Below are positions 3,646 through 16,129 of a DNA stretch of 20,000 nucleotides, piece after piece. Both the position numbers and the translations under genes were made by a program. The stretch's first letter is position 1. Each line of letters begins with the position of its first letter. The notes beneath the pieces are model-generated. The model was not told where the DNA came from. It saw only the letters and a list, made by a program, of their open reading frames with translations, and ran no database searches. Source of the DNA: an uncultured virus (IMG/VR IMGVR_UViG_3300044639_000797) (Duplodnaviria; Heunggongvirae; Uroviricota; Caudoviricetes). The stretch lies in the IMG/VR virus record IMGVR_UViG_3300044639_000797, one strand, 5' to 3'.

Positions 3646-3946
3646 TTTCCTCACCATTTGACATTCTCCTCAAGTGCTCAACTAATTTATCTACGTTCGT
3701 AGCGTTTATGCAGATGCCAGCCCCACCACTCTGAATGATTCTATCTAGCTCACGTTGTTGGATTGCCGTAGGCTTTAAGTCATTTGCCTTACACTCAATA
3801 GCTAAGAACTTACCCTGCACACAACATATTATATCTGGTATAGCTGACCTGCCATACCCATTAGCCGCTGGAAAGAAGTGCCATACACCTGCATCAATTA
3901 GTGCCTTCTTAACTTTATCTTTAACCTCACCTTCTTTAGTCCTCAT
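3623..3946 (-). CDS. VRR-NUC domain nuclease (PD-(D/E)xK, Holliday-junction resolvase-like)
   Basis: EGEVK...[29 protein letters not shown] pattern. Confidence 0.88.
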
Positions 3947-6311: not shown

Positions 6312-6527
6312 TTACATCTCATTCACTACATAGGTATGCTCGTCTATCCGCATACCAATACCTTCTACATGCTCCCCATGAGGGCTTAACTTAAGTAGTG
6401 CCACCCTCTCTGGCACTGGGGGGTCTAGCTCAGAGACATCACTAAACGATATGACATCTCCCTCCTTCAGAACCACGTTATCTAAATGAGTAGCTTTATT
6501 GGAAGTTAAATCTATTCGTATTGTCAT
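6312..6527 (-). CDS. Hypothetical phage protein (RVALLKL...VEGIG.R family)
   Basis: ORF track; TAATG overlap with the VWA gene. Confidence 0.7.
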   Translation of the reverse strand: MTIRIDLTSNKATHLDNVVLKEGDVISFSDVSELDPPVPERVALLKLSPHGEHVEGIGMRIDEHTYVVNEM

Positions 6528-7681
6528 TAGTCCACCCGTATTACTGAGCCAAATGGAGGCACAGTTGTTGTATTACCCACCATTACCCAGATAGTAGGGT
6601 ACAGTGGGGCTGTCTGTGGAAACTCAATCCATCCGTCTGTAATCATTACAATGCACTGTGGCTCTAACTTATTCTTAACGACATAGTCAAATACACACAG
6701 GGAACTAGAGCCACCTCCACCTTTAGGCTTGGTAGATGTGAGTAACCCACTGTAATTCTCTTCACGATACTGCTCGTGAGCGGCAACCTCTGTATCCCAG
6801 TAAAGTAAATCTACTTTTTCGGGAGTTGTATTATCACATATACTAACTAACTCTGCCAATGCTTTTGCAATATCTTCGCCTGATATACTGCCTGATGTAT
6901 CTATACCTACACAGATACTACCAATGCTCTCACTGATTTGACTAGGCATATACACATCATGCTGTAACCAGCGTCTATTAGGCTTAGCCCATGTGCTATC
7001 ACCCTTACCTGCACATACTGTCGATACGAACTCACGTAACTGCTCAGCCCAATTAACCTTAGACTGCATCACAGCATCAAAGCTACGGTCTACCTCACCG
7101 CCTTGCTTACCTGCTAACAGTGCACCAGTACGTACAGCACTATCTATCTCCTTAGCTAACGCCTCCTTCTCTGCCTCGTCTAAACTCTTAGCACCGTCCC
7201 AGTCATGCTCGTCCAGTGGCTTACCGCCGTTGCCCTTACCGTTCTTCTTATCTTCCTTCAACCTAGCGAACACCTCGCCGCTATCTAGCCCTCGATACAT
7301 CTCATCTACTAACCCACCCTCTGGCATAACAAGGAAGTCGCCCCACTTGTTAAGGTCTTGTATCTCTAGGTTAATAACGTAATCACATGCTTGGTTAGCC
7401 AACCAAGCATCTTCCTCATGAATCTTACGCCACACAAATAGATGCTGATATAACTTGTGCTTGGTCTCATGTAGTATAAGAAACCGTAACTCACTATCCT
7501 TAAGGCTCTCAACAAAGGCACGACCGTATATAACATCACGCCCATTGGTACATGCTGTAGGGCAGTCATCTTTCACCTCTACCTTACCTACCATCAACAA
7601 CCCTGAGTATGCTAGGGTACGCTTGTCTTGCATCAAAGCTATGTGAGCTTTGGTTATTCTATCCTCTGCACTTAGTACCAT
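6527..7681 (-). CDS. DUF2201-type protein: N-terminal metallopeptidase-like domain plus C-terminal VWA domain
   Basis: TACTNG, HETKH (HExxH), NQACDYVIN, MIDAS motif DTSGS, GGGGS, MITDG. Confidence 0.88.
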   Translation of the reverse strand: MVLSAEDRITKAHIALMQDKRTLAYSGLLMVGKVEVKDDCPTACTNGRDVIYGRAFVESLKDSELRFLILHETKHKLYQHLFVWRKIHEEDAWLANQACDYVINLEIQDLNKWGDFLVMPEGGLVDEMYRGLDSGEVFARLKEDKKNGKGNGGKPLDEHDWDGAKSLDEAEKEALAKEIDSAVRTGALLAGKQGGEVDRSFDAVMQSKVNWAEQLREFVSTVCAGKGDSTWAKPNRRWLQHDVYMPSQISESIGSICVGIDTSGSISGEDIAKALAELVSICDNTTPEKVDLLYWDTEVAAHEQYREENYSGLLTSTKPKGGGGSSSLCVFDYVVKNKLEPQCIVMITDGWIEFPQTAPLYPTIWVMVGNTTTVPPFGSVIRVD

Positions 7682-7694
7682 CTCACTCTCCTAT

Positions 7695-7708
7695 GGGTAC
7701 ATGTACCC
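7695..7708. repeat. Palindrome copy 1, GGGTACATGTACCC
   Basis: Between the ATPase stop and the VWA RBS. Confidence 0.95.
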
Positions 7709-8784
7709 TAATTAAAAAGGTAGCCATTGTTCACAGCCCATTCAGTAAAGACCCTATTAGTAACTGCTATGCTACGCTTAGGGGACTTACTACTCATAAC
7801 ACTCATAGCGAACAGAGCCTGTGCTTCTTTAGACAGTCGTGCCATATACTGCATCCAGCTACCAAAGGTAGTATCTTCTACGTTACTTAGTGCCTTTGAT
7901 ACTATCAAGCAGGTGGACGCACCGTTATGTGGGACTACAGTAGTAGTCGGGTTATTAATAATCTCAGCCCAGCTAGGCATGGTGTTGCTTAACTTCAAGA
8001 CATTCATCATATCCATCGTAGCCCTCTCACCTATCACACCGAACAGAGCATGAGTCAGTACATCTTCTGGCATATCACGGCACATCTTAAGTATGTCAGA
8101 TGCTTTCTCTAATGAACGTGGCGTAACGAACGCCGCTCTTGGTACACGTGGGTCATTGATGTACTCATTCATATCAGGACGCTCATAGTCCTCGAATGAT
8201 GCCAGCATAGCTGGATACTCTATAGCTGTAGCTATTACTACAGGGTCAACCCCTGCGTTCTGTGCATAGTCCCATCGCCATTGCTCCGCAGTAGGCTTAC
8301 TCATCTTTACAATACACACCCTGTTACGTGCATGGGGTGGTATGTTGTCGCCTATACCCTCTACTGCTAGGTTAGTAGTAGCAAATACAATAGACCCCTC
8401 TGGCAGTGAGTGAATACCCAGCTTACGTTCAAGCATAAGTCTAAGACATGCGTTCATCACAGCCTTACCTGCCTTACCTACTTCATCAAGCATAAGTATC
8501 AGAGGTTTGTTTAAGTGAAAGCCAAACTCCTCATTGGGTATGAATGAGCAGACAGGTGTACCATCTATGGTACGTATCTGTGGAACTAAGAAGTCACCCA
8601 CATCTTTAGTAGTGATGTCTATGTAGCATGGGATATGGTTGGGGTGGGACTCTGATAGAGTCTTAAGTATAGATGACTTGCCTATCCCCATCTCTCCCTG
8701 TACAAGGACAGTGAGCCGCTCACCTACTGAGCTGATAAGTTTGATAGTATCTTGCATAGTGATTGAACTATATGGTTTTTTCAT
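7708..8784 (-). CDS. AAA+ ATPase (MoxR/CbbQ/dynein-related type)
   Basis: Walker A GEMGIGKS, Walker B LMLDE, ATTN sensor, RNR arginine finger, TPRS. Confidence 0.88.
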   Translation of the reverse strand: MKKPYSSITMQDTIKLISSVGERLTVLVQGEMGIGKSSILKTLSESHPNHIPCYIDITTKDVGDFLVPQIRTIDGTPVCSFIPNEEFGFHLNKPLILMLDEVGKAGKAVMNACLRLMLERKLGIHSLPEGSIVFATTNLAVEGIGDNIPPHARNRVCIVKMSKPTAEQWRWDYAQNAGVDPVVIATAIEYPAMLASFEDYERPDMNEYINDPRVPRAAFVTPRSLEKASDILKMCRDMPEDVLTHALFGVIGERATMDMMNVLKLSNTMPSWAEIINNPTTTVVPHNGASTCLIVSKALSNVEDTTFGSWMQYMARLSKEAQALFAMSVMSSKSPKRSIAVTNRVFTEWAVNNGYLFN

Positions 8785-8808
8785 TGTCTTATCCTAATTG
8801 TTTGGTAT

Positions 8809-8822
8809 GGGTACTTGTACCC
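8809..8822. repeat. Palindrome copy 2, GGGTACTTGTACCC
   Basis: 25 nt upstream of ATG 8784. Confidence 0.95.
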
Positions 8823-8871
8823 GAAATGTCAGCCCCTTAAGGGAGCGATGCTTTACTTCAACTGCAGGTAT

Positions 8872-8900
8872 ATTATACGCTGTATGCTACGCTGTGTCCA
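8872..8900 (-). promoter_or_regulatory. Sigma70 promoter
   Basis: TGGACA-17 nt-TATAAT on the minus strand. Confidence 0.8.
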
Positions 8901-9294
8901 GCGTCTCCCCTATGGGGTATGGTTCGCCTTCTGTTTCTACATATATGTACTGAGTGGGGGATACTATATCAGGGGAATCTATATGCTTCCCATTGTCATC
9001 TGTACCATACTCCCTATCATAAACTATATCTCCTATATCCTCACCTACTCTACAAAATTCATATGAACAGCCTTGTGCTGAAGCATCTATAAGTATCTGG
9101 CTATGTTGTTTAACATCTTCATATTCATCGTACCATTTAAGACCGCTCTTATTAAATAGAATAGTTGTGTCATCTATTAATGAGAAGTCCTCTGGCTTAA
9201 TCCACTCATTCATAAACTGTACTGCCATAAACCTAACTCTATGTTCTTTTGTTTTAAAGCGTATGCAATACGCTACCTCACTACGGTATCCCAT
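8887..9294 (-). CDS. Hypothetical phage protein (MGYRSEV...KWY...RVGED family)
   Basis: ORF track; AGGAG RBS. Confidence 0.8.
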   Translation of the reverse strand: MGYRSEVAYCIRFKTKEHRVRFMAVQFMNEWIKPEDFSLIDDTTILFNKSGLKWYDEYEDVKQHSQILIDASAQGCSYEFCRVGEDIGDIVYDREYGTDDNGKHIDSPDIVSPTQYIYVETEGEPYPIGETLDTA

Positions 9295-9304
9295 CTCTCT
9301 TCTC

Positions 9305-9475
9305 CTATGTTTTATTAATTACTTTCCAAGCACTATACTTTTTAAATGGTACAGCTTGCTCACGATTCCACATCCAAATGCTACCCCCATGTCTTGAGGT
9401 TCTTAATGTCCAAGCAAGATTTCTAATACCGTACTTGCGTTTGTCTAACTTCCAAGCTACTACACCGTGTAACAT
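9305..9475 (-). CDS. 56-aa basic, Trp-rich protein (not in the ORF track)
   Basis: AGGAGG RBS; MLHGVVAWKLDKRKYGIRNLAWTLRTSRHGGSIWMWNREQAVPFKKYSAWKVINKT*; fills the gap. Confidence 0.7.
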   Translation of the reverse strand: MLHGVVAWKLDKRKYGIRNLAWTLRTSRHGGSIWMWNREQAVPFKKYSAWKVINKT

Positions 9476-9483
9476 ATAACCTC

Positions 9484-10356
9484 CTAAAATAAGTCCAGTA
9501 TGGCATCTACGTCACGCTTCAAGGTAACACGTACATAGTCGCTATCTTTAATGTCTTTACTATCAATACCAGTAAAGCTGTCCTCTAACTTAATACGCAT
9601 AGCCTCTAGCTGTGTGTCGCCCTTGATATTGAAATGCGTAAGCAACCCACACAACTCACGTGTGTTCTCCAACACACTATCGTATATCTTGCCCTTACTG
9701 CCGTCCTCATTAGTACGCAACCCAAAGCTAAGCTGAGTAAGTATCCTGTGCAACCTGTCGTATGCGTCAGCATGTACCTTCTCTATGTTTGCATTGTACA
9801 TTGCATCGTACTGGTCTTTCAGGTCGTTAAGCCCCTCGTTACCTATATCAATACGCCAGTCGCCTGACTCTGGCAATGGGTTGTACCGTACTACAAAGCC
9901 GAACTTGCTTATAACCTCCTGTGCATCAGGATACTCAGCTCTATCAAAGAGCGTACCTAACTGGAACGCCGCCGCACTTACCCTTAAGTTGTAATCTGCA
10001 ATAAAGTCATTCACTAAGCCCCAATACTGCTTCTCAAGTCGTGCCATCTCACTCTTATAAATGAAGAACTGAGCAGTCGTAAGCAACCTATCGCCATTGT
10101 CATTCCACGGTGATGTCTGTGTCATGTGGTAAGTACGAATTAACCCTGCCAGCTTTTGGATTGCCGCAAGTGAGTCATCACCTGCTAACAAGTTCTTGTG
10201 GTAGTTCCCCGCCTTAGTACGTGTTGAGTTACTGATGTCTACATCATTGCTGACTTTCTTATCCAGCTTGCGAGCTGTCCACAAAGAGATTGAAAGAGAT
10301 ACCAGCATAGCTGAACTGCTTAATGATTTTACGTTTGTATTTGTATTTGATGTCAT
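9484..10356 (-). CDS. DUF3150-like phage protein
   Basis: Start moved to ATG 10356 behind GGAG; AMLVSLSISLWTARKLDK, T.PW...G.RLL, LGTLFD..EYP pattern recalled for this family, which often lies beside AAA/VWA genes. Confidence 0.65.
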   Translation of the reverse strand: MTSNTNTNVKSLSSSAMLVSLSISLWTARKLDKKVSNDVDISNSTRTKAGNYHKNLLAGDDSLAAIQKLAGLIRTYHMTQTSPWNDNGDRLLTTAQFFIYKSEMARLEKQYWGLVNDFIADYNLRVSAAAFQLGTLFDRAEYPDAQEVISKFGFVVRYNPLPESGDWRIDIGNEGLNDLKDQYDAMYNANIEKVHADAYDRLHRILTQLSFGLRTNEDGSKGKIYDSVLENTRELCGLLTHFNIKGDTQLEAMRIKLEDSFTGIDSKDIKDSDYVRVTLKRDVDAILDLF

Positions 10357-10379
10357 GATGTTCTCCAAAATTAAAAGGT

Positions 10380-10393
10380 GGGTACTTGTACCC
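10380..10393. repeat. Palindrome copy 3, GGGTACTTGTACCC
   Basis: 24 nt upstream of ATG 10356. Confidence 0.95.
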
Positions 10394-10413
10394 AATAAAA
10401 AGAAACCTGTTGC

Positions 10414-10737
10414 TTAACTTATATATGTGGCAACCTTTACTGCATCACCACACTCGCTATACTTCACTAGCACTCCACTAAAAAATGAATCGTTGTGGTA
10501 TCCGTCCCACCCTTTGAAAGGTATGTTCTCTTTGAAAGGCGCGTTGTAATTTACTCGCATGAAGTCCCCCAGAAAGTAACACCACTTCCTATATCTAAAG
10601 AACGAACAATCGTTTACATCTTCTCCGCTCTCGCTGTCATTAAGATACGCATACTCCTCCTGCTCTTTTGGCAATAGGTCGTACCAATACAACACAGGGC
10701 GGTATTTGTTATCAGTTATAATCTTTAACTCGCTCAT
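10414..10737 (-). CDS. Hypothetical phage protein (WDGY..DSFFSGVLVK family)
   Basis: Start at ATG 10737 (ATGA overlap). Confidence 0.78.
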   Translation of the reverse strand: MSELKIITDNKYRPVLYWYDLLPKEQEEYAYLNDSESGEDVNDCSFFRYRKWCYFLGDFMRVNYNAPFKENIPFKGWDGYHNDSFFSGVLVKYSECGDAVKVATYIS

Positions 10738-11030
10738 GACATACACCCAATAATAATATTCTCACCGTCCCAATACTCACCGTTTAAATACCAAACTCCT
10801 TTTTTCTGTACTATGCTCACACCAGCTAACCCATTCAACCGTTCCTTAGTAGTGGGTGTGAACCAACCGCAGTTGGTGATGGTATAAGCTAGAGGTGTAC
10901 GCTGTGCTATGCAGTTGCCATGCAATAACAATTTAATTACGTTACCTTCTACAGTAACCTTTGTATTACCCCGACTAAAATATGCCCCACTATGAAAGTG
11001 GTCAGCCGCTAATGATGTTATGTTTCTCAT
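10734..11030 (-). CDS. Hypothetical phage protein (LHGNCIA...GW.T.TTKERLN family)
   Basis: ORF track; AGGAG RBS. Confidence 0.8.
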   Translation of the reverse strand: MRNITSLAADHFHSGAYFSRGNTKVTVEGNVIKLLLHGNCIAQRTPLAYTITNCGWFTPTTKERLNGLAGVSIVQKKGVWYLNGEYWDGENIIIGCMS

Positions 11031-11051
11031 TTGATTCTCCTAAAGGTTATG

Positions 11052-11065
11052 GGGTACTTGTACCC
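11052..11065. repeat. Palindrome copy 4, GGGTACTTGTACCC
   Basis: 22 nt upstream of ATG 11030. Confidence 0.95.
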
Positions 11066-11115
11066 GATTCGTCAGCCCCTTAAGGGGGCGAGGCTTTACT
11101 CAACTACTGGTACAT

Positions 11116-11144
11116 ATTATACAGTAAAACTCCTTATATGTCAA
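11116..11144 (-). promoter_or_regulatory. Consensus sigma70 promoter
   Basis: TTGACA-17 nt-TATAAT on the minus strand. Confidence 0.9.
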
Positions 11145-11422
11145 GGGGTTAGAACATATTGTTCACCTCCTTTCTTAACTTTCTCAACCTTAGCCATTTG
11201 CACAGGCTTCTCACAAGGCTTACTTAAATAGTACAGGCAATACCCTGCACCTGATAGGGATAACACAAGGGCTAACACCAACCCTGCACAGATGTTTCTA
11301 TAGTGGTCTACATAGTCTGCCAGTATGTCCACCTCTTCCTCATGTTGTTTCATAATGCGGTTCAATGCCTCACTACGTAGGCGTGTTTCTTGTTCTGTTC
11401 GTATCTCTTGTTGTGCTTTCAT
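11141..11422 (-). CDS. Hypothetical single-transmembrane protein
   Basis: ICAGLVLALVLSLSGAGYCLYYL; AGGA RBS. Confidence 0.7.
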   Translation of the reverse strand: MKAQQEIRTEQETRLRSEALNRIMKQHEEEVDILADYVDHYRNICAGLVLALVLSLSGAGYCLYYLSKPCEKPVQMAKVEKVKKGGEQYVLTP

Positions 11423-11448
11423 GTTTTTATCCTGTTAGTTGTGTGGTT

Positions 11449-11462
11449 GGGTACAAGTACCC
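11449..11462. repeat. Palindrome copy 5, GGGTACAAGTACCC
   Basis: 27 nt upstream of ATG 11422; flanks extend the symmetry (TT...AA). Confidence 0.95.
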
Positions 11463-11605
11463 AATGGTTGGGGTGTATCAGCACAAGGCGGTAAAACGTA
11501 CATATAATAGGCTGCCCTGCCTGATACCTCTGCGGTTAATTCAAACGCCCACTCACAGATATACGGCGTCTGGGCTTATTCACCTACCCAGCTTAGGTCA
11601 CACAT

Positions 11606-11731
11606 TTAACTATTTTTTAATGCTAACATTTCTTGGTACGTTCCTGTCGCTATAATTCTATAGCTGTTTCTTACATCTGTTCCTTTGCACACTATGATGT
11701 TACCGTGTGCGTTCTGTTGTGCTGAGTACAT
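11606..11731 (-). CDS. 41-aa hypothetical protein (not in the ORF track)
   Basis: AAGGA RBS; MYSAQQNAHGNIIVCKGTDVRNSYRIIATGTYQEMLALKNS*. Confidence 0.7.
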   Translation of the reverse strand: MYSAQQNAHGNIIVCKGTDVRNSYRIIATGTYQEMLALKNS

Positions 11732-11906
11732 AGGGGTTTCCTTTTAGTAGTAGGGTTAATAAGGTTTCATCTGTTTTAGTTGCTATAAAGTTTTTACACC
11801 GCTCAGTAAATTCCGTTTCATCAGCTATGGGGGCATAGCTATTCGCTGCTTTTAGCATACGCTCTAATAACATCTCTGATATTTTCTCACGCTCTTCACT
11901 TGTCAT
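11700..11906 (-). CDS. Hypothetical protein, paralog of 11896-12081
   Basis: MTSEEREKISEMLLERML. Confidence 0.72.
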   Translation of the reverse strand: MTSEEREKISEMLLERMLKAANSYAPIADETEFTERCKNFIATKTDETLLTLLLKGNPYVLSTTERTR

Positions 11907-12081
11907 CGTCTACTCCCAATAGCTCAGCTATCAGTTTTTCATCGCTATATTTGTTTAGATAAAATCTTATATACAAGTCAGTCTTAAGGTCAATACTAAG
12001 GTCAGACCATGCTATACTATTCTCTTCTAGCATACGCTCTATCAATATATCTGATATTTTCTCACGCTCTTCCTTAGTCAT
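11896..12081 (-). CDS. Hypothetical protein, paralog of 11700-11906
   Basis: MTKEEREKISDILIERML. Confidence 0.72.
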   Translation of the reverse strand: MTKEEREKISDILIERMLEENSIAWSDLSIDLKTDLYIRFYLNKYSDEKLIAELLGVDDDK

Positions 12082-12659
12082 GATAGCGACCCGTCCTCTT
12101 CAAAGTCCATGTATTCCACACCTTCAAAGAAGTTATCCATAGAAAACTCATACTCATAAGCGTTCTCCAGCTCACGGTACAGTTGCCGCATATGCTCTCT
12201 GCATTGCTCTAATATGTCAGGCTCAGCCTGAGTCATTATGTCATCGAACTTACCTAAGTCATTAGTCCATATCTCCCACTCAAGCGTTATAGTGTTCTCG
12301 TGGTAATAACTATGGTGCTGTGTTTTTCGTAAGAGTAAGGTGTACTCACCATAGTCGTCTGACAATGTATCAAACGGTACTGTGCTTAGGTACAGCTCAG
12401 CATGATTCTTCTTTAAATCAGGGTGTGCCTCAAGAAACTCTTTTAAGTTTATAACACCTTCAAAACTAGCACCATCTCCCTGTGAGTGAAAGCCTGTGAA
12501 GTGCATATCATACACCTCCGTATCAATGCCTATTGCTCCTAGCCTTTCCACCCAGTCTTCGAGCACATGATGTGCCCAATGGTTGTCATAGAGCTCCCTG
12601 TTTTTAAAGCTCTCAAAGGCATGTTCCTTTGCCTCGTCTGATAATTCGTTATAGTTCAT
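12078..12659 (-). CDS. Acidic hypothetical phage protein (ELSDEAK..A / F.GF.SQGDGASF family)
   Basis: ORF track; AGGAG RBS. Confidence 0.8.
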   Translation of the reverse strand: MNYNELSDEAKEHAFESFKNRELYDNHWAHHVLEDWVERLGAIGIDTEVYDMHFTGFHSQGDGASFEGVINLKEFLEAHPDLKKNHAELYLSTVPFDTLSDDYGEYTLLLRKTQHHSYYHENTITLEWEIWTNDLGKFDDIMTQAEPDILEQCREHMRQLYRELENAYEYEFSMDNFFEGVEYMDFEEDGSLS

Positions 12660-12668
12660 CGTTTGCTC

Positions 12669-12836
12669 CTACGCATACCATTTAGGTAATGCTTTATACT
12701 CTTTTACTAAGTTGGGGTACTCAGCTTCAAGCAATTTGCACAGCAGTCTGTCTGCATATAAGTGTACGCTCTCTATGTCCCCTTTATGTTCATCACATAA
12801 AGTTTTTAATTGTTCTAATGCTTGTTGCTCATTCAT
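12669..12836 (-). CDS. Hypothetical protein (DIESVH..AD.LLC...KWYA)
   Basis: Start moved to ATG 12836 behind AGGA. Confidence 0.72.
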   Translation of the reverse strand: MNEQQALEQLKTLCDEHKGDIESVHLYADRLLCKLLEAEYPNLVKEYKALPKWYA

Positions 12837-12863
12837 TGTCTGTGTCCTATTAAGTGTTGTTAT

Positions 12864-12877
12864 GGGTACTTGTACCC
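12864..12877. repeat. Palindrome copy 6, GGGTACTTGTACCC
   Basis: 28 nt upstream of ATG 12836. Confidence 0.95.
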
Positions 12878-13000
12878 AACTTATTCTTCTTCCATCTCTA
12901 CAGTAAAGAACGCACACACGTCCCAATACTCCCACTCTTCTTCTGTTTGTGGTGTTTCTAAGCGACTGTTTCTTTGTATGTGTTACTACGCTGGTTAGGG

Positions 13001-13261
13001 TTATACCTCCAATACAATTTCCTCCTTGTTTTCGTCCCATACATAATATCCATATTTAATCTCCTTCCACTCTTCCATGAGATGGTCGTGTTGGGTTCCC
13101 CAACCACAGTAAACCGTAGATGAATCCCTTCTTTCATTTAGAATGTCCGCTTCTAAAGCCTTAATCTCACCGTCAATACGGTGAAGTTCTGATGCTCTTT
13201 CAGCATCGTTTTTTCTGTTCATTGCTTTTATTAAAGCAGTTACTGAATTTTTTGTTTTCAT
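13001..13261 (-). CDS. Hypothetical protein
   Basis: ORF track; first gene behind the 13366-13394 promoter. Confidence 0.72.
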   Translation of the reverse strand: MKTKNSVTALIKAMNRKNDAERASELHRIDGEIKALEADILNERRDSSTVYCGWGTQHDHLMEEWKEIKYGYYVWDENKEEIVLEV

Positions 13262-13288
13262 TGTCGTATTCCTATTAATAAGTGTTAT

Positions 13289-13302
13289 GGGTACTTGTAC
13301 CC
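13289..13302. repeat. Palindrome copy 7, GGGTACTTGTACCC
   Basis: 28 nt upstream of ATG 13261. Confidence 0.95.
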
Positions 13303-13365
13303 GAGTTAGTGGTCAGCTCCTTAAGGGAGCGAATCTTTCTTCTCTTTCTTCAAACTACAGGACAT

Positions 13366-13394
13366 ATTATACGCCCTTTCCTAGTGTGTGTCAA
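13366..13394 (-). promoter_or_regulatory. Consensus sigma70 promoter with an overlapping IHF-consensus site
   Basis: TTGACA-17 nt-TATAAT; AATCAAGGACTTG (WATCAANNNNTTR) at 13392-13404 on the minus strand. Confidence 0.9.
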
Positions 13395-13420
13395 GTCCTT
13401 GATTTATTTAGCTTTTATTT

Positions 13421-13440
13421 AGGGGAATGGGGATTCCCCT
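13421..13440. terminator. Terminator-like hairpin just downstream of the 13445-14722 gene
   Basis: AGGGGAAT-gggg-ATTCCCCT; the T-run is on the + strand side, so the direction is uncertain. Confidence 0.4.
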
Positions 13441-13444
13441 GTTT

Positions 13445-14722
13445 TTACTTGCTTTCTTTAGAGACCTGTTTCTTTGTCACCAATATGTCGCCGTTCCTTA
13501 GCTTCTGTTTGAACCCTTTCAGCTTAGCTACTCGTTTCTCGAACTCTCGTATGGCATCAGCCTCACTCCACGCATAAAAGTCAGGTATCTTGCCTCTCTC
13601 TACCACTCCTTGCACCACCCATTGCCCTTTAATATGCTTTATGTTGCGTGTGTGCCCATACACTCTCTTACACGCACGTGCGCGCACCTGCTTCTTTAAT
13701 GTAGGGTCTTTAGTTATAGTCGCCGTACTGACAGCGTCAGGCTTGATGTTGTCCCATCTTAAGTTGAGTGGGTCGCCGTCCCTGCATGGCTTGCGTCTGG
13801 GCTTGTTGGTCTTGTGGTCGTATAGCTTCAGACCCTCTGGTGCTATGGTGGTATTTACCCTGTATGCGTTATCAATGCCGCGAGTGTAGTTCCAGTCGCC
13901 TCCTGCACCCATATAAAGGTATGCTAGTTGATTGGCAGTGTATTCTTTCCCTAACAACACTATGCGTACGTATGGATTGTTCTTTTTAAGGTAGTATGGC
14001 ACTCTTATCAGCTCGTCTGTCGCTCCTTGTGGTGCTTTCTTTGCATAGAACAGTCGGTATATGTCCGTTTGGGGTTCTTTCTGGTTCTGGTTCTGATTCT
14101 GTGCTTGTGCTTGTGCTTGTGCTTGTGCTGTTAAATACGCCTCCTCATTCACCATATGATAACCTGACAACCTTGCTGGCTTGCGTGGTAGTTTGCTCTT
14201 GTCCTTTGCCTTTGCATTGGGCTGTTTTGTATGCTTACTTGGTGGCTTAGTTGGTGGCATTACTACTCTACCTGCTCTTTTACCTGCTAGTGAGCCTGTT
14301 TGCCACTCAAATGTGCCTTCCTCTGGGTCGTAGTATAAGTGGTGCTTCAGTTGCTCTTGTGTTAGTGGTTGCGCTCGTGCTTGCAGTCGCCGTTCTTTGT
14401 CTTGGGTACGTGTACCCGATATTGCATCTTCTATCGCCGTCTTTACGTAATGTTTAAGTAGTAGGGTCTCTTTGCCAGTGTTAGGGTTAGTGTATATATA
14501 GTTAGCCAGTGCTGTTAGTTCATCTATTACTGCATTACGTCTATCTCTTTTCTCTATCTGTTCTTGCATCGACAGTCTTTTTTGCAGCTCTTTCTTTTCC
14601 CTCTCTGCTTGTTTGCTTAAAGCGTATTTATACCGTCTGTATTCATTCGCATGAATTCTATTTAATCTTGATGCTTCAGATAGTCCTAAGTAGTATTGTG
14701 CTGTTCTTTTTATAGGTTGCAT
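13445..14722 (-). CDS. Large basic protein built on a degenerate HNH homing-endonuclease scaffold
   Basis: LTQEQLKHHLYYDPEEGTFEW..AGKRAG, YVRIVLLGKEYTANQLAYLYMG and CRDGDPLNLRWDNI match HNH_3-type segments in order, separated by insertions. Confidence 0.7.
   Translation of the reverse strand: MQPIKRTAQYYLGLSEASRLNRIHANEYRRYKYALSKQAEREKKELQKRLSMQEQIEKRDRRNAVIDELTALANYIYTNPNTGKETLLLKHYVKTAIEDAISGTRTQDKERRLQARAQPLTQEQLKHHLYYDPEEGTFEWQTGSLAGKRAGRVVMPPTKPPSKHTKQPNAKAKDKSKLPRKPARLSGYHMVNEEAYLTAQAQAQAQAQNQNQNQKEPQTDIYRLFYAKKAPQGATDELIRVPYYLKKNNPYVRIVLLGKEYTANQLAYLYMGAGGDWNYTRGIDNAYRVNTTIAPEGLKLYDHKTNKPRRKPCRDGDPLNLRWDNIKPDAVSTATITKDPTLKKQVRARACKRVYGHTRNIKHIKGQWVVQGVVERGKIPDFYAWSEADAIREFEKRVAKLKGFKQKLRNGDILVTKKQVSKESK
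14082..14129. repeat. In-frame hexamer microsatellite, (TGGTTC/TGATTC)x3 plus (TGTGCT)x5
   Basis: Encodes AQAQAQAQAQNQNQNQ on the minus strand. Confidence 0.9.
14404..14417. repeat. Palindrome copy 8, GGGTACGTGTACCC (intragenic)
   Basis: Inside 13445-14722, read as S-G-T-R-T-Q. Confidence 0.95.
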
Positions 14723-14756
14723 TTGATTTGTCCTTTTGGGGTGTTTTGAGGCTGTA

Positions 14757-14786
14757 ATTGTAGTACACGTGTCACATAAAAATCAA
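14757..14786 (-). promoter_or_regulatory. Possible weaker sigma70 promoter for 13445-14722
   Basis: TTGATT-18 nt-TACAAT on the minus strand. Confidence 0.4.
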
Positions 14787-14794
14787 GATATACG

Positions 14795-15086
14795 TTGACA
14801 ATGAACAACTAAAAATTCTGTAAGGGCACGTAGAATGGGCTTGTGACGGAGTAGGTAAGGCAAAAAATAGCGTTATTAAAGATTTGGAATTATGAGAGAG
14901 GAAGAACAAAAAGAAGTAAAAAAACATATATTCCCCTGTGACACCTACTACACAGGGAAAAAGAAGAAATTTTGAAAAACTTTTCTCTCTATATATATAT
15001 TATAATAATAATAATAATAATAAGACCTTTTTTTTCTACCCCTCACCACTGCTGGGCTCACAGGAATTTTAGTTGTTCATTGTCAA
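14795..15086. repeat. 30-bp imperfect inverted repeats (14795-14824 / 15057-15086) around an AT-rich core
   Basis: TTGACAATGAACAACTAAAA (20 bp) is identical in both arms; the core has (CT)n, (AT)n and (ATA)n runs. Confidence 0.85.
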
Positions 15087-15336
15087 TGCATTGCGCCCTA
15101 TTTTCTGTTACACGAGTTTCTCACCTACTCACTATCCTTATGCTAAACATCACCATCACGCATACACATTACAGACAACTAGCATGTTCTTTATAAAGCG
15201 ATTTAAGGCTCATTTAGGGCAATGTAGCACTTTTTTATTATCGACGCGTAAAGGGCATGCTACTTCGCTTAAATCGCATAGCTTAGTTTAGTAAAAGAAA
15301 CAGGTATCAAATTCGGCGCGTGGCTGAATTTTAGAC

Positions 15337-15362
15337 AAAAAAAAGCCCTCTTTCGAGGGCTT
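15337..15362 (-). terminator. Rho-independent terminator
   Basis: Minus strand AAGCCCTC-GAAA-GAGGGC-TTTTTTTT, just after the 15383 stop. Confidence 0.9.
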
Positions 15363-15369
15363 GGTGTTC

Positions 15370-15383
15370 GGGTACGTGTACCC
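15370..15383. repeat. Palindrome copy 9, GGGTACGTGTACCC
   Basis: Overlaps the TAG stop, just before the terminator. Confidence 0.95.
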
Positions 15384-16024
15384 TATTTTGTTTCACGCTC
15401 CACGTAGGCGTTTATATCTTTTGCCAGAACTAGCAGTTCTGGTAGACTCAGATACTTAACAAGGCTGTTAAGGCTTGCATCAACCTTTTTCTGGCTAGCA
15501 TCACCTATTTTAAGGTCAGGTTTGAGTGCAACCTTAGTTGGTTGCTCAACAGTGTTTTTACTGGCTGGTGTAGCGTCATGGGTACTTGTACCCGAAACTT
15601 CAGCTTTTATCCTATCTTGTACGGCTTGTAACTCTTTTTCGGTTAGTGCCTTGCTTGCCTTTTCAGCCTTAACAAATGCCGCCTTCTTAACCGCTAGCTC
15701 TTCAATACTAAGCAAGCGCACTTTTTCAATAGTGCTAGTGCTATCGAGGTATGATGCAAAGTTTTTGGCGCGTGTCCCATTACTATCTAGCCAATTACAA
15801 TATACGGTCGATAGTTCAAAAGCTTGTACTCGCTTGTGGTCGGTATATAGTCCTTTTGCGATACTGCGAATTGCGTCGCGGGTTGGATTGGTTGCCATAA
15901 TAGCAAGACTTTCTTTTTTAAACAGCTCAATATCCTTGTTATCAAACAGCCTATTGGCTATAAGGCTTAAAGCAGTTAGTTTAATAGTTAAAGTTTCAGT
16001 TTGTTTTTTAGTGTTAGTAGTCAT
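15383..16024 (-). CDS. Hypothetical Lys/Ala-rich protein; first gene of the leftward arm, monocistronic
   Basis: Start moved to ATG 16024 behind AGGA; has its own promoter and terminator. Confidence 0.8.
   Translation of the reverse strand: MTTNTKKQTETLTIKLTALSLIANRLFDNKDIELFKKESLAIMATNPTRDAIRSIAKGLYTDHKRVQAFELSTVYCNWLDSNGTRAKNFASYLDSTSTIEKVRLLSIEELAVKKAAFVKAEKASKALTEKELQAVQDRIKAEVSGTSTHDATPASKNTVEQPTKVALKPDLKIGDASQKKVDASLNSLVKYLSLPELLVLAKDINAYVERETK
15580..15593. repeat. Palindrome copy 10, GGGTACTTGTACCC (intragenic)
   Basis: Inside 15383-16024, read as S-G-T-S-T-H. Confidence 0.95.
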
Positions 16025-16049
16025 TTGATTAAGTCCTATTAAGATGGTT

Positions 16050-16063
16050 GGGTACATGTACCC
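16050..16063. repeat. Palindrome copy 11, GGGTACATGTACCC
   Basis: 26 nt upstream of ATG 16024. Confidence 0.95.
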
Positions 16064-16100: not shown

Positions 16101-16129
16101 ATTATACTCGCAATGTGTCATCGTGTCAA
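16101..16129 (-). promoter_or_regulatory. Consensus sigma70 promoter
   Basis: TTGACA-17 nt-TATAAT on the minus strand. Confidence 0.9.

Follow-up and report, generated by a model that had tools for sequence, protein, structure and literature searches.

An exchangeable palindrome array in the early arm of an uncultured phage, and the first early gene as its candidate partner

Palindrome arrays in the early regions of phages are already known. The one described here lies in a stretch of 20,000 nucleotides (nt) from an uncultured virus of the Caudoviricetes (IMG/VR record IMGVR_UViG_3300044639_000797), which is referred to below as the window, and it consists of copies of the 14-bp palindrome GGGTAC-NN-GTACCC. 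What is new is a candidate partner, encoded by the first gene of the early arm and revealed by natural swaps of the palindrome among related phages.

The repeats closest in appearance are those of the Cluster O mycobacteriophages (Corndog). As far as the part of PMC4351075 used here describes them, they are 17-bp palindromes present in 34 copies genome-wide, with one sequence in all five phages. A dimeric binder is proposed there, which is not named in that part, and some deletions are ascribed to recombination between copies. The stoperators of Cluster A mycobacteriophages (L5 gp71, TipsytheTRex) are asymmetric 13-mers oriented with transcription. According to the sections used of PMC6550527 and PMC9283540, they are bound by the monomeric helix-turn-helix (HTH) repressor of temperate phages, for which a block to elongation has been proposed. 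In the T4-type PeSL, every unit combines a promoter with a terminator-like stem containing G-T pairs (PMC2839356, in the part used). No published description of such an array in the phage group of the window was found in the literature.

The palindrome array of the early arm

A pattern scan of the window gives 11 exact copies of the palindrome. In shuffled windows the mean is 0.01 copies and the maximum 1, and none of 200 shuffles reaches 11. The arms are fixed, and the central dinucleotides, read on the plus strand, are TT in six copies, AT in two, GT in two and AA in one. All 11 copies fall in a stretch of 8.4 kb in the early arm, which is on the minus strand and divergent from the terminase genes. 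An earlier note on this DNA had claimed that the palindrome is confined to this arm. A scan of the whole genome (64,369 bases) recovers these 11 exact copies again; it has no copy with one mismatch and a single copy with two (window position 368). The genome-wide scan thus adds no exact copy outside the array, and the confinement is valid for the entire genome.

Eight of the 11 copies end 13–27 nt 5' of an ATG, just upstream of ribosome-binding sites. The copy at 7695 overlaps the stop codon of the ATPase gene and that at 15370 the stop codon of the first early gene, and those at 14404 and 15580 are located within open reading frames (ORFs). Four copies are promoter-proximal, beginning 37–63 nt downstream of the -10 hexamer, and none of the 11 overlaps a consensus promoter. 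On recount, all of the start positions and centres given in the earlier note were as it had them, as were the two stop overlaps and the two copies within ORFs; its spacing of 14–28 nt to the start codon differs from ours only by the counting convention. It had also called the array phage-specific, which agrees with the distribution of the commonest variant: among the 80 viral stretches listed, of at least 125, loci with multiple copies come solely from the lineage of the window. Rfam, searched at the gathering threshold, has no match in the window. The array is a real feature.

The features of the early arm are listed below from the first gene onwards. Palindromes carry no strand, type A is the palindrome of the window, numbers beginning with L denote loci of relatives, and protein lengths are in amino acids (aa).

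16050–16063, palindrome in the leader of the first gene, type A, with the -10 hexamer 37 nt upstream and the ATG 25 nt downstream
16101–16129, minus strand, promoter of the first gene, 12 of 12 positions of the sigma-70 consensus
15383–16024, minus strand, first early gene (213 aa), inferred candidate for the palindrome binder
15580–15593, palindrome in the linker-coding part of the first gene, conserved in position in L037 and L131
15370–15383, palindrome on the stop codon of the first gene, directly ahead of the terminator
15343–15362, minus strand, stem and T tract resembling an intrinsic terminator (consensus match), ending the first-gene unit
14404–14417, palindrome within the 425-aa ORF 13445–14722, exact copy
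13366–13394, minus strand, sigma-70 promoter, 12 of 12 consensus
13289–13302, palindrome ahead of the 86-aa gene 13001–13261, exact copy
12864–12877, palindrome ahead of the 55-aa gene 12669–12836, exact copy
11449–11462, palindrome ahead of a 93-aa gene, the sole copy with an inverted centre
11116–11144, minus strand, sigma-70 promoter, 12 of 12 consensus
11052–11065, palindrome ahead of a 98-aa gene; L057 has a type-B site in its stead
10380–10393, palindrome ahead of the DUF3150-like gene 9484–10356, kept in several type-B and type-D genomes
8872–8900, minus strand, sigma-70 promoter, 11 of 12 consensus
8809–8822, palindrome ahead of the MoxR-type ATPase gene 7708–8784; relatives have B, D plus B, or C sites
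7695–7708, palindrome at the stop of the ATPase gene, ahead of the VWA (DUF2201) gene, exact copy

Exchange of the palindrome together with the first early gene

Relatives of the window were collected as 77 loci around relatives of the ATPase (one locus plus 76 new ones, the latter from the best 80 of 393), several of which are near-duplicates or incomplete stretches. A palindrome in 3–12 copies is present in 56 of the 77, and simulated controls have 1–2 copies in 25 of 25. Across the relatives there are at least 15 palindrome types. Type B is a longer and different palindrome, found at the positions of the window palindromes in contigs that are 98–99% identical to the window in TerS and the DUF3150-like protein, and other relatives have types C and D at equivalent positions. 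Even the copy inside the 425-aa ORF (14404) has such counterparts, the orthologues in types B, C and D each having their own palindrome there.

The exchange proceeds site by site, within DNA whose identity is often 90–98%. Alignment blocks between the lineage of the window and the type-B locus L057, which are 74–99% identical (five of them at 90–99%), end at individual sites, so that the sites are exchanged singly and not as a block. In L120 and L122, five sites are each altered symmetrically within flanks that are 89–95% identical, leaving two sites of the old type, each with substitutions. Type-B relatives lack site 7695 as a 17-nt indel and site 11449 as a 21-nt indel, and these indels are flanked by 4- and 8-nt direct repeats. 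In L059, L060, L007 and L011, leaders carry a D and a B palindrome in tandem, with a first gene of either family.

Three further arrangements were seen. The site ahead of the DUF3150-like gene (window 10380–10393; L057, L060, L007, L008; L122:3792) is a recurrent leftover of another type, which suggests that this gene sweeps between types along with its leader. A mosaic import is seen in the type-A locus L131: its ATPase and VWA genes are separated by a 153-aa gene that comes with a type-D site (11174–11669), an arrangement shared with L006 and L011. In the clade L090–L097, two different palindromes are interleaved among very small early ORFs, and no large first gene was seen.

The gene that changes with the palindrome is the first gene of the early arm. 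Its unit has the order promoter, site ahead of the ribosome-binding site, site in the linker region, site on the stop codon, terminator. In 24 of the 27 distinct loci, the nearest feature ahead of the first gene is a cognate site (judged by eye, with no bound on distance), the remaining three being L057, L069 and L102, and the counterparts of the first gene often have their own genome's palindrome on the stop codon. One such comparison is that of the window (type A) with L057 (type B). Their TerS proteins are 98% and their DUF3150-like proteins 99% identical, and of 12 window proteins only the first-gene protein lacks a tblastn hit in L057, the other 11 being 71–100% identical. In type-A L131, by comparison, the first-gene protein is 84% identical. 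The earlier note had put forward five candidate binders; this comparison singles out 15383–16024, the other four being among the proteins that are 71–100% identical in the type-B relative.

Three further sets with near-identical cores and different types behave in the same way, two of them with unrelated first genes. For L059 against L060, and for L065, L066 and L069 against L067, the similarity of the ATPase is 0.98–0.99 and that of the N-terminal domain (N-domain) of the first-gene protein 0.04–0.07, and the types differ. In L120 and L122, which also differ in type, the C-terminal domain (C-domain) of the first-gene protein has a similarity of 0.95 and the N-domain of 0.58.

Counts over all loci were made after excluding contigs that were duplicates and loci that lacked an array or a first gene, which leaves 27 distinct loci. 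The nearest neighbour is of the same type in 18 of 21 cases when judged by the N-domain, compared with 12/21 for the C-domain, 13/21 for the ATPase, 12/21 for VWA, 14/21 for DUF3150, 11/18 for TerL and 9/15 for TerS. Given each of four core genes in turn, the partial rank correlation of N-domain with type is 0.34–0.55 (p = 0.001, by a permutation that ignores relatedness). In a 17-member family, the type labels change 8 times on the N-domain tree, which is the minimum, 9 times on three core trees and 10 times on the C-domain tree, and type Q is monophyletic on the N-domain tree only (96/94). Related first-gene proteins also pair with related palindromes, the C and D proteins being 42% identical. 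The N-domain of the first gene thus changes along with the palindrome type, with some exceptions.

Proposed function of the sites

The first-gene protein belongs to a small family, with 8 matches in one search and 15 in another. It is modelled as a helical N-domain (residues about 1–144), a disordered linker (144–170) and a C-terminal two-helix hairpin. The N-domain is a confident helical bundle, with a predicted local distance difference test (pLDDT) score mostly about 90 over residues 11–120, and is basic (pI 9.5). No match to an HTH or stoperator domain (gp71 family) was present among the matches listed, and a listing may miss a family.

We hypothesise, with moderate confidence, that the palindromes are sites for a repressor or roadblock encoded by the first gene, which would limit its own gene and then close the early arm. 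The first gene would be expressed ahead of the other early genes. Its protein, presumably a dimer, would bind the palindrome duplexes directly, both in leaders and inside genes; in doing so it would damp its own gene, and would then end transcription of the early arm, either as a repressor or as a roadblock. A repressive effect is suggested because the sites are downstream of promoters and within genes. Among the explanations offered in the earlier note, it is the operator or roadblock that fits best; its crossover sites are weak and its RNA signal is disfavoured, for the reasons given below.

Several observations weigh against this hypothesis. The first gene of L010 is flanked by a B-like palindrome, and its array is of type D. 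Type N is split over two subfamilies of the first gene. In the type-I clade, no large first gene is visible on the locus map. Homology between the first-gene families is undetectable, and sequence and fold searches found no relative of the first-gene protein, so that its DNA binding and its dimeric state are inferred from genetics alone. The mismatch in L010 between the array and the palindrome beside its first gene is what would be expected if a host factor bound the sites, or if they were decoys for host defence, so that types followed hosts and not a phage gene. However, types differ between phages with 98–99% identical terminase and early genes, and the change of type coincides with the replacement of one phage gene, which makes an explanation by the host very improbable.

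A second possibility retains the same protein and the same sites and gives them a positive role, in which the protein coats or organises the first-expressed DNA, shields it from nucleases or silencers, or aids expression. The tandem B and D sites show that a genome keeps sites because it uses them itself, in keeping with repression as well as with protective coating, and their presence under either allele of the first gene looks as if binding benefits the genome. Sites in ORFs, upstream of promoters and past terminators suit coverage as well as regulation, and the long flexible linker might bridge sites. Sequence alone does not separate coating from an operator or roadblock. We nevertheless consider coating unlikely, since 8 of the 11 sites are just 5' of ribosome-binding sites, suggesting gene-by-gene control; the sites around the first gene resemble autoregulation; and a coat has no obvious need for a sequence that differs between phages that are 99% identical.

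The sites could alternatively be RNA hairpins in the early leaders, which an RNA-binding protein or a nuclease, possibly the first-gene product, would read for translation control, processing or antitermination; the earlier note had likewise offered a signal for RNA processing or translation. Each type-A copy does fold, with a 5-bp stem, a 4-nt loop and -4.6 kcal/mol, and is still folded in the four leaders tested. The majority of the sites are transcribed and lie beside ribosome-binding sites, the length of the loop varies in types B and D, and types A, P, Q and N2 show a strand bias of their centres. However, types N, J, M and I have centres in both orientations. Moreover, the arms do not vary within a type. 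In seven types the centre is a single nucleotide and the innermost bases of the arms are fixed; because these bases are unable to pair over a loop of that size, recognition of DNA is favoured over RNA. Among 18 one-mismatch variants beside 174 perfect sites, 5 are G-U, 5 A-C and 8 other, and hence G-U variants are not in excess, although the cases are few and the power low. Some sites are outside the predicted transcripts, being upstream of the promoter in L067 and in L120 and L122, and past the terminator in L065, L066 and L069. Recognition is therefore more plausibly of double-stranded DNA, and a hairpin is distinctly unlikely.

A useful comparison is provided by a second leader element, which is found on the minus strand between promoter and palindrome (window 13316–13330, about 11075–11089, and 8832–8846). 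It forms a hairpin of 5 bp, in which the 5-nt loop is nearly fixed and the stem differs among relatives; the element is boxB-like and probably acts at the RNA level. To vary the stem around a near-fixed loop is the behaviour of an RNA element, and is unlike that of the palindromes.

Recombination between sites has occurred. In type-A L131 the 1,069 bp that separate site 11449 from site 10380 are missing, and the junction is exactly site to site: the left flank of 11449 matches at 39 of 40 positions and the right flank of 10380 at 40 of 40. Another junction, at which the 86-aa gene is missing, would also fit recombination at sites, and is ambiguous. These junctions, together with the gain and loss of sites as 17- and 21-nt indels with direct repeats at their edges, would be expected if the sites served as recombination joints, or were themselves very small mobile elements, by which cassettes of one gene each are shuffled and for which the first gene provides the recombinase or spreader. 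The earlier note had likewise proposed crossover sites, for which the exact junction in L131 is a point in favour. However, when indels of 100 bp or more were compared over 16 pairs, no more than 9 of their 80 breakpoints fell 20 nt or less from a site, a zone that takes up 6.6% of the region. The scarcity of breakpoints near sites makes recombination look like a by-product of the repeated sequence, which it probably is. In addition, two sites lie inside genes, the unequal flanking repeats would suit slippage better than the footprint of a transposase, and no recombinase match was found for the first-gene protein. A role as recombination joints is thus more doubtful still than one as hairpins.

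Returning to the repressor or roadblock, we may speculate that the first-gene protein would also silence co-infecting phages of the same type. A new pair of protein and sites would escape this silencing and spread, which would account for the fast turnover of types. In its general form this would give a large family of apparently lytic aquatic phages an immunity-type system without lysogeny: the product of the first-injected gene, drawn from several unrelated families of binder, would silence any genome with its palindrome, its own genome on schedule and that of a co-infecting relative too early, and competition among kin would drive the repeated replacement of the protein together with all of its sites. 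We offer this wider idea only tentatively.

The phage group and comparison with known systems

The genome is one contig with a 127-base end overlap, and is probably a circular assembly. Its terminase relatives HTVC023P/027P, DSL-LC04 and MinM2 are 48–57% identical. The early arm codes for the DUF3150-like protein, the MoxR-type ATPase and the VWA protein, followed by a family-A polymerase, a helicase and a primase; the DUF3150-like, MoxR ATPase and DUF2201 VWA genes (window 6527–10356, minus strand) are an early module conserved throughout the group. No integrase or partition protein was found in 78 ORF scans against PHROGs, in which the small ORFs were only partly covered. A relative with 79% ATPase identity was found in a Methylophilaceae bin, which is a weak hint to the host because bins may contain foreign contigs.

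Two other minus-strand genes of the window have matches to transcription proteins. The gene at 1084–1488 encodes a phage protein fused to the C-terminal domain of RNA polymerase alpha (Pfam E 1e-20), possibly a decoy or a modulator of transcription. The gene at 3936–4628 matches sigma-70 region 4 (Pfam E 1e-18), and its N-terminal half weakly matches a PHROG regulator; the gene is present in some close relatives and not in L004.

A cultured phage with an analogous array is MinM2 (OQ594354), which shares the DUF3150/MoxR/VWA early arm. It has its own 15-bp palindrome, of which, in the 61 of 65 kb examined, 17 copies are exact and 36 have at most two mismatches; the copies are densest in the early arm and extend also into late genes. 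By BLAST, the first gene of MinM2 matches none of the first genes in the window group. No array was found in the stretches retrieved of HTVC023P, HTVC027P and DSL-LC04. MinM2 (L051/L053), Pag-Yong1 and Pra-JY27 are 65,014 bp each with equal match scores, and three different cyanobacterial hosts are named for them; the host assignment of MinM2-like records in GenBank warrants a check.

In the early-region arrays described so far, as far as the sources used here go, the binder is usually not identified (Cluster O) or is restricted to the repressors of temperate phages (Cluster A). The natural swaps provide matched pairs of protein and site from several protein families without a known relative in sequence or fold, and some of the matched sites differ by just one or two bases per arm. 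Such pairs make binding, specificity and function testable using synthetic DNA, and could expose new sequence-specific DNA-binding folds together with an orthogonal set of regulators. They also raise the question of how a phage rewrites 5–12 sites together.

The comparisons that follow are limited to what the parts used of the cited papers describe. The array shares with the Cluster O repeats its invariant arms, a short variable centre, many copies inside and between genes, and its concentration in one operon block, and the exact deletion in L131 resembles the deletions between copies described there (PMC4351075). It differs in being 14 bp and not 17 bp, in its arms, and in belonging to a phage with an HTVC023P/MinM2-like terminase. 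Also unlike Cluster O, the 11 copies of the window are confined to the early arm, and the relatives have at least 15 types, which co-vary with a candidate partner gene.

With the Cluster A stoperators the array has in common many sites away from promoters (none of the 11 overlaps a consensus promoter) and in short intergenic spaces, and a lineage-specific consensus that tracks the sequence of a protein, here the N-domain of the first gene, with exceptions. In contrast to stoperators, the sites of the window are palindromic and neither asymmetric nor oriented, the candidate has no HTH match among those listed, no integrase was found in the ORF scans, and whole unrelated genes are exchanged. The PeSLs are similar in that the repeats stand ahead of small early genes, with strong sigma-70 promoters adjacent, and in that recombination joins copies, for which the window group has one exact junction; however, a promoter precedes only 4 of the 11 window sites, the arms are invariant, and some sites are within ORFs. 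On the descriptions available in these sources, the array would work like the stoperators of Cluster A and looks like the repeats of Cluster O, and is a member of neither, nor of the PeSLs.

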